From the NCBI GenBank assembly GCA_000092065.1, contig CP000581.1: a DNA stretch of 64,000 nt. One strand, given 5' to 3'. The notes under the pieces are model-generated. The model ran no database searches and had not been told where the DNA came from. It saw nothing but the letters and a program-made list of their open reading frames with translations. The stretch comes from Ostreococcus lucimarinus. Lineage: Eukaryota. Shown here piece after piece: positions 6,283 to 9,810 of this stretch (its first letter is position 1; each line of letters starts with the position of its first letter). A program made the position numbers and the translations under genes.

Positions 6283-9200
6283 ATGTCGGCGGCCAAGGCG
6301 GCGGCCAAAGCGGAACGCGCCGCGGCGCTCCGTAAGGATGTCGACTTCGTCGAACACACGTGGGCGGCGGAAAAGCTCTATGCGCACTTTGGATGCACGC
6401 TCGAAGATGGTTTGTCCAACGAGCGCGTGCTCGAGAACCGCGCCAAGTACGGCGAAAACCGGCTGACGCCTCCCGAGGTGACGCCGTGGTACATCAAGTT
6501 TTTGATGCAGTTTGCGAACTTTTTCGCGCTCTTGCTTCTCGGGGGTGGGGTGCTTTGCTTCGTTGGTTACGCCATCGATAGTGAAAAGGATCAAACGAAC
6601 TTGTATCTCGGCGTGGTGCTCTTCACCGTCGTCATGATTACGGCGACGTTTTCCTTCTTGCAAGAAGCCAAGTCCGAAGCCATCATGGAGGGTTTCAAGA
6701 GCATGATCCCGAAGAAGTGTAAGGCGATCCGTGGCGGCAAGGCTGTCGTCATCGATGCCTGGGAGCTCGTTCCGGGTGATGTCGTCGATCTCAACGACGG
6801 CGACCAAGTCCCGGCGGATATTCGCGTCATGCGCTCCAACGAACTCAAGGTTGACAACTCTTCTTTGACCGGTGAGTCTGAGCCGCAAGATCGTACTCCG
6901 GAACTCGCGGTCGACTCCAATGGTAACATCGTCACGCAGCCGCTCGAATCTACGAACTTGTGCTTCTACACGACGATCATCAACTCTGGTTCCGGTCGCG
7001 GCGTCGTCATCGGCAGCGGCGATCGCACCGTCATGGGTCAAATCGCTGGTCTCGCCACGGAAACGAGCGGTGAAGACTCGCCGATTTCTAAGGAAATCAA
7101 GAAGTTCATCCAACTCATTTCTATCGTCGCCATCACGCTCGGTATCGTTTTCTTTGTCGTCGGTTTGACCAACGGGACGGCGATTATTCAAAACGTCGTC
7201 TTCATGATTGGTATCATCGTCGCCAACGTGCCGGAAGGTCTCCTCGCCACCGTGACTGTGTCTTTGGCTTTGACTGCCAAGCGCATGCACGCGAAGAACG
7301 TGCTCGTGAAGAACCTCGAAGCCGTCGAAACTCTCGGTTCGACGACTGTCATCGCCTCCGACAAGACGGGTACGCTCACGCAAAACCGCATGACGGTGCA
7401 ACACGCGTGGTACGACAACAAGGTTTACTTCTGCCCGGCGGGTAAAAATATCCCGGATCTCAAGGTTATCTCTGAACCCGGCCAAACGCCGGATGGTGAA
7501 CCGTTCTACGATCAGTCTTCGGAAGCGTTCCAACGCTTGCTCCAAGTCGCCACTTTGTGCAACAACGCCGAGTACTTGACGAAGAGCGAAGACGGCTCCT
7601 TCATCGACCTCAAGGCTGAAATGATGAACCCGAACTTCAATATTCTCAAGCAACCGGCCACCGGTGACGCTTCCGAACAAGGTTTGCTCAAGTTGGTTCA
7701 GCCGCTCAACGACGCTCTCGACACCCGCGCCAAGTACCCGAAGTTGTTCGAAATCAAGTTCAACTCGACGAACAAGTGGCAGCTGTCCATTCACGGGCAA
7801 CCGGGCGGCCGTCCGCCTCTGCTCGTGCTCAAGGGTGCGCCGGAGCGCGTGTTGGCCAAGTGCACGTCGTACTTTTCCAACGGTAAGACGTCGAGCAAGG
7901 ATGCCGAATTCGAGCGCACCTACACGCAGTCTTACGAAGATCTCGGCGGTCGCGGTGAGCGCGTCCTCGGTTTCGCGTTCAAGGAACTCTCTGGATTCAA
8001 GAATGACTTCAAGTTTTCCCAAAAGCCGAAGCCGAACTTCCCGATCGATGACCTCACCTTCGTCGGTCTCTTCTCTCTCATTGACCCGCCGCGCGAAGGC
8101 GTTCCGGAAGCCGTGACGAAGTGCAACCGCGCTCGCATCAAGGTTTACATGGTCACGGGTGATCACCCGATCACCGCAGCGGCCATCGCGAAGCAAGTGA
8201 ACATCGTCTCTCAAGAAAACCTCGACAACGGCACAGCCTGCGTCGTGAAGGGCGACGACATTCGCGCGTGGACTGAAATTGAAGACCCGGTCGCTCAACG
8301 CGCCAAGTGGGACGCGGCTCTCGATCACAAGCAAATCGTTTGGGCGCGCGTGTCTCCGGCACACAAGCTCTTGATCGTCGAAAACTGCCAACGACGCGGC
8401 GAAATCGTCGCCGTCACCGGTGATGGCGTCAACGACGCCCCGGCGCTCAAGAAGGGTGACATCGGTATCGCCATGGGTATCGCCGGTAAGGATGTTTCCA
8501 AGGAAGCGGCTGACATGATTCTCATGGATGACAACTTCGCCTCCATCGTGAATGGTGTCGAAGAAGGTCGTCTCATCTTTGACAACCTCAAGAAGTCCAT
8601 CGCGTACACGCTTTCTTCCAACATTCCGGAAATCGCGCCGTTCTTGTGCTACATCACCGCCAAGATTCCGTCTCCGTTGACCACCGTGCTTATTTTGTGC
8701 GTCGATCTCGGTACGGATATGGTTCCCGCTATTTCCATGGCGTACGAAGAAAAGGAAGCCGACATCATGGATCGTCCGCCGCGCAACGCGCAAACGGATC
8801 GCCTCGTCAACTTCCGATTGATTTCTTTCGCGTACCTTCAAATCGGTATCATCCAAGCCCTCGCTGGCTTCTTCACTTACATGCTCGTCCTTAACGACTA
8901 CGGCTACACGCCGAGCATCTTGATGGGCAACGGCTTGAAGTGGACCAAAAACTCCTTGCTCTGCACCCTCAACGGTGACAGCATCGTGGACACGAATCAA
9001 GGCCGCGCCATCTACCGACCGAAGGCGTGCGGTTTCGGCTGCGCTGACTCGACCGGTACCATGGCGAACATGTGCAAAGGTGGATGCGCCATTCCGGTCG
9101 ATTACGTTCCGAGCACCACAGCCAATCTCGCGTCCCCGTTCCTTGCTCGCTTGGTGTCGACGAATGGAGCGACTGGAGTCACCGTGGATCCGTTCCTCGA

Positions 9201-9810
9201 ATTCGACGAGAATGGATTCCGCGGTAAAGGTCTCACGTGCGGCCGATCTTGCGCGTCGTTGGCATCTGCAACGCTTTCTACTGCCGAGCAAACCGCGTAC
9301 ACGTATTTCTGCTCGGACACGGGTACCACTGGCACTGCTTCCAACCTGGGCGGTGACACGGCCGGCTGGGGATTCTCCAGAGGGTACGTCGACGATAAAG
9401 CCATCGCTCCGGCGGGCGCGTACTACTGGTGGAACGGCGCTCCGCAGACGCAACCGAACGTCGACTACCAAACCGCCGCTCTCGAGTACGCGCAAACCGC
9501 GTACTTCATCACGATTATCATCGTCCAATGGGCCGATTTGATGATCGCCAAGACTCGCAAGTTGTCCATCTTTGAACAAGGCATGGGTAACGACTTCATG
9601 AACTTTGGTTTGATCTTCGAAACCGTCCTCGGCGCCACGTTGTGCTACACGCCCATCTTCAACAAAGTGTTTGGTACGCGCCCGCTGCACGTCCTTCACT
9701 GGTTCTCTGGCGTGCCTTGGTCGATTTTGATCTTCACGTACGACGAGTTGCGCAAGTCTTTGATTCGCTCCAACCCGAAGGGCTGGCTCGATCGCTGGAC
9801 GTACTGGTAA
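6283..9810 (+). CDS. P-type ATPase, subfamily IIC (Na+/K+- or Na+-ATPase alpha-subunit-like), 1175 aa.
   Basis: DKTGTLTQNRMTV phosphorylation motif, TGES, VAVTGDGVNDAPALKKGDIGIAMG hinge, and 10-TM layout. The N-terminal region up to the first TM is collinear with animal Na,K-ATPase alpha. ATG at 6283. A roughly 200-aa Cys-rich insertion sits between TM7 and TM8 (see findings). Confidence 0.9.
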   Translation: MSAAKAAAKAERAAALRKDVDFVEHTWAAEKLYAHFGCTLEDGLSNERVLENRAKYGENRLTPPEVTPWYIKFLMQFANFFALLLLGGGVLCFVGYAIDSEKDQTNLYLGVVLFTVVMITATFSFLQEAKSEAIMEGFKSMIPKKCKAIRGGKAVVIDAWELVPGDVVDLNDGDQVPADIRVMRSNELKVDNSSLTGESEPQDRTPELAVDSNGNIVTQPLESTNLCFYTTIINSGSGRGVVIGSGDRTVMGQIAGLATETSGEDSPISKEIKKFIQLISIVAITLGIVFFVVGLTNGTAIIQNVVFMIGIIVANVPEGLLATVTVSLALTAKRMHAKNVLVKNLEAVETLGSTTVIASDKTGTLTQNRMTVQHAWYDNKVYFCPAGKNIPDLKVISEPGQTPDGEPFYDQSSEAFQRLLQVATLCNNAEYLTKSEDGSFIDLKAEMMNPNFNILKQPATGDASEQGLLKLVQPLNDALDTRAKYPKLFEIKFNSTNKWQLSIHGQPGGRPPLLVLKGAPERVLAKCTSYFSNGKTSSKDAEFERTYTQSYEDLGGRGERVLGFAFKELSGFKNDFKFSQKPKPNFPIDDLTFVGLFSLIDPPREGVPEAVTKCNRARIKVYMVTGDHPITAAAIAKQVNIVSQENLDNGTACVVKGDDIRAWTEIEDPVAQRAKWDAALDHKQIVWARVSPAHKLLIVENCQRRGEIVAVTGDGVNDAPALKKGDIGIAMGIAGKDVSKEAADMILMDDNFASIVNGVEEGRLIFDNLKKSIAYTLSSNIPEIAPFLCYITAKIPSPLTTVLILCVDLGTDMVPAISMAYEEKEADIMDRPPRNAQTDRLVNFRLISFAYLQIGIIQALAGFFTYMLVLNDYGYTPSILMGNGLKWTKNSLLCTLNGDSIVDTNQGRAIYRPKACGFGCADSTGTMANMCKGGCAIPVDYVPSTTANLASPFLARLVSTNGATGVTVDPFLEFDENGFRGKGLTCGRSCASLASATLSTAEQTAYTYFCSDTGTTGTASNLGGDTAGWGFSRGYVDDKAIAPAGAYYWWNGAPQTQPNVDYQTAALEYAQTAYFITIIIVQWADLMIAKTRKLSIFEQGMGNDFMNFGLIFETVLGATLCYTPIFNKVFGTRPLHVLHWFSGVPWSILIFTYDELRKSLIRSNPKGWLDRWTYW

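Follow-up and report, generated by a model that had tools for sequence, protein, structure and literature searches.

A gene in a 64,000-nucleotide window of the Ostreococcus lucimarinus genome (contig CP000581.1, assembly GCA_000092065.1) encodes a Na,K-ATPase alpha-type P-type ATPase of the P2C family that carries a cysteine-rich domain in the loop between its transmembrane helices (TM) 7 and 8. We found that this insert is a real, translated, and ancient extracellular domain built into the green-lineage P2C pump, that it is known only within this pump family, and that it has no detectable relative among solved folds. The gene, an orthologue of OtNAK1, is an intron-less coding sequence at 6283..9810 and consists of a single unbroken open reading frame (ORF) of 1175 amino acids. 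The ectodomain, as inserted relative to animal alpha subunits, comprises residues 889-1067 (8947..9483). Positions are those of the window and lie on the plus strand unless indicated otherwise. The best reading of our data is that the ectodomain is an analogue, not a homologue, of the ectodomain of the animal beta subunit.

In a phmmer alignment with bovine alpha1 (4xe5_A), residues 6-888 of the pump match residues 22-889 of the chain, and residues 1068-1175 match residues 913-1021. Collinearity with the Na,K-ATPase alpha of animals through TM7, as proposed in a preliminary description of this DNA, is thereby borne out, and 179 pump residues (889-1067) occupy the place of 23 in bovine alpha1, which corresponds to a net gain of ~155 amino acids. 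Between the anchors LNDYGY and YAQTAYF, the loop measures 199 amino acids in the pump compared to 44 in mammalian alpha2, and this mammalian control loop contains no cysteine. The earlier estimate of about 200 inserted amino acids is thus accurate for the loop as a whole, while it overstates the net insertion. The pump's ten transmembrane helices are seen in a full-length AlphaFold2 (AF2) model, including TM7 (residues 844-872, FRLISFAYLQIGIIQALAGFFTYMLVLND; 8812..8898), which aligns with TM7 of bovine alpha1, and TM8 (residues 1060-1089; 9460..9549), which aligns with alpha1 from residue 913 and holds the cation-site residues of the IVQWADL motif. Since the insert is flanked by these two modelled helices, and the alignment breaks at 889/913, it is located in the TM7-TM8 ectoloop (L7/8), as had been suggested. 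This loop is extracellular in ten-helix P2 ATPases. No TM-like segment was found in the insert (maximal Kyte-Doolittle mean over 19 residues of 0.75, and of 1.38 across 39 homologous inserts), and the insert of the Ostreococcus pump contains no N-glycosylation sequon. The median net charge of the insert across homologues is -7.

The strings quoted in the preliminary description (CGFGCADSTGTMANMCKGGC, CGRSCASLAS, and YFCSDTGTTGTAS) are all present in the translation. Its count of at least nine cysteines has to be corrected to eight within the residues encoded by 8900-9500, and these are arranged as a single cysteine, three CX3C pairs, and a final single cysteine. Cys894 (8962..8964) is followed by CGFGC (C916 and C920; 9028..9042), by CKGGC (C931 and C935; 9073..9087), after which Pro938 is conserved, by CGRSC (C986 and C990; 9238..9252), and by Cys1010 (9310..9312). 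When 82 full-length pumps were aligned, C894, C916, C935, C986, and C990 were invariant, and C920, C931, and C1010 were conserved in at least 90% of the sequences; C894 and C1010 are also invariant in the 39 inserts.

Beyond the cysteines, about 30 insert positions are conserved across the 82 homologues. Those reaching at least 90% include G917, G934, P938, G1030-F1031, R1033, Y1048, W1050, Q1055, P1058, and N1059, together with D969-P970-F971, E973, and G978-F979-R980-G981, which belong to the core motif DPFLEFDENGFRG (residues 969-981; 9187..9225; predicted local distance difference test score (pLDDT) ~82). A second motif, YYWWNGAPQTQPN (residues 1047-1059; 9421..9459), runs into TM8 and is modelled as two short strands with a pLDDT of 84-93. 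It lies at the position of the beta-docking SYGQ of animal pumps: YYWWNGAPQ of the pump aligns where mammalian alpha has DSYGQEW, so that SYGQ is replaced. The residues Y1048, W1049, W1050, G1052, Q1055, P1058, and N1059 of this motif are at least 85% conserved. The resulting framework reads C ... CG[FY]GC ... CxxGC.IP ... DPFxEF..GFRG ... CxRxC ... C ... GF..R ... YWWNG..Q..PN, and a looser form of its central part (DPFxE..G[FY][RK]G..CxxxC after CxxGC) has all of its elements in the Ostreococcus pump.

To describe the distribution of the domain, we compared the loops of 24 mostly named sequences, among them 22 intact green-lineage pumps and a mammalian control. The set includes Ostreococcus, a Bathycoccus-cluster sequence, Pseudoscourfieldia, Pterosperma, Prasinocladus (Tetraselmis), and a Prasinococcus-cluster MMETSP transcript; among other chlorophytes Bryopsis, Flabellia, Ostreobium, a pedinophyte, Micractinium, Picochlorum, Parachlorella, Chlamydomonas incerta, and Volvox; and the streptophyte algae Klebsormidium, Closterium, and Mesotaenium. 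It thereby spans prasinophytes, ulvophytes, trebouxiophytes, Chlamydomonadales, and streptophyte algae. The intact green-lineage loops are 154-273 amino acids long and have eight cysteines in 20 of 22 cases, the remaining two having 12 and 14. All relatives obtained in a search with the insert only, down to 35% identity, kept the insert. Judged from these alignments, the domain is universal among the intact green-lineage P2C pumps examined, freshwater and streptophyte algae included, and its presence in both Ostreococcus and Bathycoccus, where the preliminary description had proposed to look for it, is only a small part of its range. The conserved core amounts to ~125-150 amino acids, to which Mamiellales add two or three floppy, low-complexity surface loops. 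Pump residues 901-911, 943-962, and 1017-1023 fall in columns filled by less than 30% of the sequences, and by this measure the Gly/Thr/Ser-rich stretches are additions limited to close (Ostreococcus-type) relatives on an older core. One candidate for a relative without the insert, P0082 (an MMETSP 'complete' ORF of 1027 amino acids), was rejected because its loop region is frame-shifted. The gene calls P0004, P0010, and P0014 are likewise frame-shifted inside or just past the insert, and such database entries can make a pump look truncated or devoid of the insert when it is not.

Several lines of evidence demonstrate that the insert is coding. Scored with the codon usage of the gene itself, the insert has a mean codon log-probability of -3.96 in frame 0 compared to -4.86 and -4.88 in the other frames, and the GC content at codon positions 1/2/3 is 0.53/0.58/0.70, compared to 0.54/0.39/0.74 in the remainder of the gene. 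Between three Ostreococcus clades, the ratio of nonsynonymous to synonymous divergence (dN/dS) is 0.17-0.33 in the insert and 0.06-0.12 elsewhere in the pump, with dS near saturation. Indels in the region among five near-identical environmental alleles are 9, 12, and 15 nucleotides (nt) long, all multiples of three. Complete MMETSP transcripts with the same loop are available from Pterosperma (P0047) and Tetraselmis chui (P0044), and the Bathycoccus prasinos protein P0217, for which an MMETSP transcript is on record, keeps the loop. The O. tauri genomic locus is collinear with the pump in one frame over the full protein length, and the deposited O. tauri gene model retains the insert as an exon. 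The preliminary description had considered that the region might be an unspliced intron, and such an intron, or an annotation artefact, would be missing from the mature protein. The lack of a Pfam family, the low-complexity composition, and a published statement that O. lucimarinus is without the insertion (PMC7911474) could be taken in favor of this explanation. We nevertheless regard it as practically excluded, given a stop-free, in-frame sequence with frame-0 codon usage and a dN/dS below 1, allelic indels that preserve the frame, cysteine and motif positions that are invariant in the 82 homologues down to 50% identity, and complete, mRNA-derived transcripts of relatives that encode the insert. 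With regard to competing frames, a 1382-amino-acid antisense ORF (5551-9699, minus strand) spans nearly all of the pump gene, and long ORFs are found in other frames, too. Neither the antisense ORF nor a +1-frame ORF (8975-9541) matches Pfam, and because the codon statistics favor frame 0, we read both as by-products of a gene rich in GC at third codon positions.

AF2 modelling of the isolated domain with a 39-sequence alignment gave a mean pLDDT of 79.1 and a predicted template modelling score (pTM) of 0.76, and the full-length model (mean pLDDT 79.0) contains the same secondary structure elements. Strands are modelled at residues 892-896, 913-918, 1047-1050, and 1053-1055, and helices at 952-961, 990-995, and 1000-1011. 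The pLDDT exceeds 80 on the conserved motifs and falls below 50-60 on the lineage-specific loops. The core is thus predicted to form a compact, autonomous fold. A loop expansion that is merely tolerated and has no function might be suspected from the variation in loop length between lineages (154-273 amino acids) and from the low model confidence of the sub-loops. However, conservation of eight cysteines and ~30 further positions extends from prasinophytes to streptophyte algae, a compact fold is predicted for the core, and the core is under purifying selection both within the population (ratio of nonsynonymous to synonymous polymorphism (pN/pS) of 0.47) and between clades (dN/dS of 0.17-0.33), which makes absence of function very unlikely.

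The location of the insert at the beta-docking site and a claim in print of high similarity to beta (PMC7911474) would speak for a domain that is homologous to the animal beta subunit and was brought into the pump by gene fusion, by a transposable element, or by a virus. Our searches argue strongly against such an origin. A profile of the 39 inserts gave no match at E<=10 against all PDB chain sequences, including beta1-3 and H,K-ATPase beta. PF00287, the beta subunit family, was matched by none of the 39 inserts at E<=1, and no other Pfam family was convincing either. A Foldseek search of the predicted domain against 350,542 PDB chains returned nothing at E<=0.001, and no fold match was obtained among the viral structures of BFVD. 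In addition, the predicted fold is a mixture of helices and short strands, as opposed to the immunoglobulin (Ig)-like sandwich of the beta ectodomain, and the insert has no TM segment. Homology to the beta subunit was therefore rejected at the sensitivity of the profile, Pfam, and fold searches, and we consider a fused beta subunit extremely improbable. When 1.84 billion representative proteins were searched with the profile, 54 hits were obtained, of which the top hits and all others inspected were P2C ATPase sequences or fragments, with two exceptions. These two, P0175 and P0177, were rejected as unrelated repeat proteins with weak, apparently spurious multi-stretch matches; no free-standing or elsewhere-placed copy was found among the inspected hits.

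What the domain does has to be considered in light of the animal pump. There, the beta ectodomain binds L7/8 around SYGQ, and the C-terminal helices depend on alpha-beta assembly to enter the membrane correctly, as do exit from the endoplasmic reticulum (ER) and K+ handling. We propose that the eight cysteines of the green domain pair into four disulfides in the oxidizing extracellular or luminal space. The domain would then form a rigid, disulfide-bonded cap over M7 and M8 at their extracellular ends, the place at which the beta ectodomain of animals meets SYGQ. Such a cap might stabilize the M7-M8 hairpin in cis during folding, on ER exit, and in the working pump, as beta does in trans. The outcome would be a single-chain, beta-independent Na+(/K+) pump in the alga. 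Disulfide formation, docking geometry, and the role as chaperone or stabilizer are inferred from the conserved framework and its position. That a built-in ectodomain replaces the beta contact, as already put forward in the preliminary description, is plausible from the sequence comparison, and it is consistent with the report that green algae have no beta subunit (PMC7911474). Overall, we judge the chances that a four-disulfide cap stabilizes M7-M8 in cis and renders the pump beta-independent to be about evenly balanced. Four points count against this interpretation. The same paper calls the beta-equivalent hypothesis experimentally unsupported; the TM helix with which beta packs against M7 and M10 has no counterpart in the insert; the rate of evolution of the domain is 2-4 times that of the remaining pump; and its loops are hypervariable within populations. 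Without a substitute for the beta TM helix, the insert can mimic the ectodomain contact only, and the fast evolution together with the hypervariable loops points to an added or different outward-facing role.

The hypervariability is concentrated in two loops. Loop 1 (residues 950-968, ASPFLARLVSTNGATGVTV; 9130..9186) lies mostly in the Mamiellales-specific sub-insertion at residues 943-962 and has a pLDDT of ~49-59. Loop 2 (residues 1008-1030, YFCSDTGTTGTASNLGGDTAGWG; 9304..9372) is Gly/Thr/Ser-rich, contains the sub-insertion at residues 1017-1023, and has a pLDDT below 50 at 1014-1021. Compared to the pump, members of its own 90% cluster (leaving out P0190, which is more divergent throughout) are 99.3-99.7% identical over residues 1-888 and 100% identical over residues 1068-1175, whereas identity over the insert is mostly 90-96%, with one allele matching exactly. 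The changes are gathered at residues ~954-968 and ~1011-1027.

At the DNA level, we analyzed five alleles, four of which were recovered from independent metagenomes (L005-L008); the values below come from assemblies and non-independent pairs, and alignment near indels is uncertain. In 150-nt windows, nucleotide diversity (pi) is 0-0.005 over the gene and its flanks, mostly 0, with one window at 0.016, compared to 0.054 in 9083-9232 and 0.095 in 9233-9370. Synonymous and nonsynonymous diversity (pS and pN) are 0.097 and 0.162 in the two hot loops (pN/pS ~1.7, subject to the uncertain indel alignment of the five alleles), 0.0185 and 0.0086 in the insert core, and 0.0015 and 0.0014 in the remaining 996 codons, which are nearly identical among alleles. 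Alleles differ in loop 1 by in-frame indels of 9 and 15 nt, and loop 2 occurs as two divergent haplotype cassettes with recombinants. The same localization was observed in a second Ostreococcus cluster (0.116 vs 0.008 amino acid differences per column) and in the Bathycoccus cluster (0.084 vs 0.026). Because synonymous diversity in the loops is ~60-fold in excess, relaxed constraint alone does not suffice as an explanation. Possible sources of this diversity are haplotypes that balancing selection has maintained for long, introgression or gene conversion from one clade to another, and slippage in low-complexity sequence.

These data bear on the possibility that the ectodomain is chiefly outward-facing, either as a surface for recognition, adhesion, or attachment (exploited, for example, by prasinoviruses or grazers) or as an acidic vestibule that tunes how cations reach the extracellular gate, with the conserved disulfide core as a scaffold for variable loops. 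We consider this possible, with a probability clearly lower than that of the cap. It is in line with the two diversity hot spots in an otherwise nearly invariant gene, with the elevated pN in the loops, with the discrete, recombining cassettes and their recurrence in the other two clusters, with the median net charge of -7, and with the hypervariable region described in surface or receptor-binding genes of O. tauri viruses (PMC12906663). However, the hot loops are low-complexity Gly/Thr/Ser stretches specific to Mamiellales, the conserved core by far predates any arms race of this kind, the diversity estimates carry the uncertainties of the five alleles given above, and an outward-facing role is compatible with a beta-like function in cis and does not exclude it. 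The more specific idea, that the disulfide core serves as a scaffold for the Mamiellales loops (~950-968 and ~1008-1030), in which diversifying or balancing selection maintains polymorphism, as a site of prasinovirus or other biotic recognition or attachment, appears doubtful to us; it is based on the five DNA alleles and ~40 protein alleles from metagenome assemblies. As part of this idea, the cassettes may be old and recombining within an otherwise almost invariant housekeeping gene, whose product would be an abundant and essential protein of the cell surface. A link between the pump loops and the O. tauri viruses, which have a hypervariable region in the genes mentioned, is speculation.

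With respect to the pump as a whole, Pfam domains Cation_ATPase_N, E1-E2_ATPase, Cation_ATPase, Hydrolase, and Cation_ATPase_C are found in the 1175-amino-acid protein. Its top phmmer matches in the PDB are Na,K-ATPase alpha1 chains (E 6e-297), followed by weaker matches to H,K-ATPase alpha (~1e-250) and Ca pumps (SPCA/SERCA, ~1e-114 or weaker). By these scores, no other P2 subfamily is as near to the pump as Na,K/H,K-ATPase alpha. The phosphorylation-site motif SDKTGTLTQNRMTV (D360; residues 359-372; 7357..7398) has invariant columns from S359 to M370 in the 82 homologues, as has the actuator TGES motif, which reads SLTGESEPQ in the pump. The cation-site motifs of M4 (PEGLL), M5 (YTLxSNIPE), M6 (DLGTDMVPA), and M8 (VQWAD) align as identical or conservative relative to bovine alpha1, and all Na+-coordinating residues are conserved in OtNAK1 (PMC3355532). 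The pump ends in WTYW (9796-9807), compared to ...TYY in animal alpha subunits, and at least 90% of the green-lineage homologues share W1175 and T1173. The tyrosines at the C-terminus have an influence on the Na+ affinity of animal pumps.

With the full-length protein as query, more than 7,600 P2C pumps were obtained, and the best 120 of these are the matches listed. The identical protein is also encoded on two further public contigs, and the nearest named relative among the matches listed is the O. tauri P-type ATPase P0029 (84% identity). The deposited model of P0029 (1174 amino acids; GCA_002158475.1, KZ155838.1, 1001-4658) contains an apparently spurious intron after residue 1093, which swaps TM9-TM10 for an unrelated Arg/Ser-rich tail; the unbroken O. 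tauri ORF at 1001-4510 restores the conserved C-terminus ...GWLDRWTYW.

In the window, a gene for an ankyrin-repeat protein (4078-5331, minus strand) lies upstream of the pump gene, and an EMG1 (PF03587) gene on the opposite strand (9978-10937, minus strand) lies downstream, followed by a PF02458 transferase gene (10507-12402, plus strand). This neighborhood is conserved between Ostreococcus clades (L001, L003, L004). The regions flanking the pump gene and its neighbors at 5200-6250 and 10600-11050 have a GC content of 0.71-0.81 compared to 0.52-0.60 in the coding body, show strong swings in GC skew, and yield many Arg/Ala-rich spurious ORFs.

In animals, sodium pumps that lack a beta subunit neither fold nor exit the ER. 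A close relative of the animal pump operates in green algae, which are reported to have no beta subunit, and the cis ectodomain at its beta-docking loop can be regarded as nature's own experiment on the contribution of the beta ectodomain. This also suggests a possible route to single-chain Na+ pumps for engineering of salt tolerance in plants. New in this study are the green-lineage-wide domain with its eight-cysteine framework, the finding that, at the stated sensitivity of our searches, it is unrelated to beta and matches no solved fold, and the identification of its surface loops as hot spots of population-level diversity, which, if due to selection, would indicate a second, ecological role.

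Green-lineage pumps of this type have been described before. OtNAK1 (Q01GZ3, Ot01g00900, 1172 amino acids) and CrNAK1 from Chlamydomonas reinhardtii were reported as putative Na+/K+-ATPases by Pedersen et al. 2012 (PMC3355532). The Ostreococcus pump belongs to the same family as OtNAK1, carries the same insert, is 84% identical to it, and shares the eight-cysteine loop. In Dabravolski & Isayenkov 2021 (PMC7911474), an M7-M8 'beta-subunit-like insertion' and the hypothesis of a beta equivalent are presented with reference to Pedersen & Palmgren 2017. The insert and the beta-equivalent idea are thus already known, and either alone adds little. According to PMC7911474, the insertion has a high similarity to beta, is confined to a small fraction of algae, mostly marine ones, and is absent from O. 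lucimarinus and freshwater species. In contrast, none of the intact green-lineage P2C sequences that we examined was without it, those of Chlamydomonas, Volvox, Closterium, Klebsormidium, and Mesotaenium included, and all Ostreococcus relatives among the matches listed carry it. In neither sequence nor predicted fold did we detect similarity to beta.

The animal beta subunit forms a chain of its own, a type-II membrane glycoprotein that comprises a single N-terminal TM helix and an Ig-like ectodomain and contains three disulfides. Like beta (PF00287), the green insert is an extracellular, cysteine-bearing domain at L7/8 with the same proposed role in stabilizing M7-M8, its disulfides being predicted. 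Unlike beta, it is present in cis, without a TM helix or sequon and with eight cysteines arranged as 1 + 3xCX3C + 1, and its predicted fold mixes helices and short strands where beta has an Ig-like beta-sandwich. Relative to the animal holoenzyme, the loop measures 199 instead of 44 amino acids and SYGQ is replaced; the short loop is a trait of the animal holoenzyme and not of the whole P2C clade. In another ATPase subfamily, the P4 flippases, CDC50 beta subunits cap the ATPase ectoloops with a luminal, disulfide-bonded, and glycosylated domain that is needed for ER exit (PMC10654040). CDC50 differs from the green insert in that it is an unrelated family that acts in trans and has two TM helices.

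Among non-animal P2C pumps, to which the green pumps also belong, the Na+-ATPase HANA of Heterosigma akashiwo (Shono et al. 2001, BBA 1511:193) is reported to contain an extra hydrophilic stretch of ~285 amino acids between TM7 and TM8 at the beta junction. A further large loop was encountered in P0128 (MERC catalogue), an apparent chimeric assembly. Its first ~420 residues are almost identical to the Ostreococcus pump, and its C-terminal part (residues 505-880) derives from another lineage, with 54% identity in TM8-10. This second, non-green half has an L7/8 loop of ~320 amino acids with eight cysteines and none of the green motifs. Given this different loop, large L7/8 insertions seem to exist in more than one form outside animals, and the comparison suggests that the green and non-green expansions arose independently, or have diverged strongly, at the same site of the pump.

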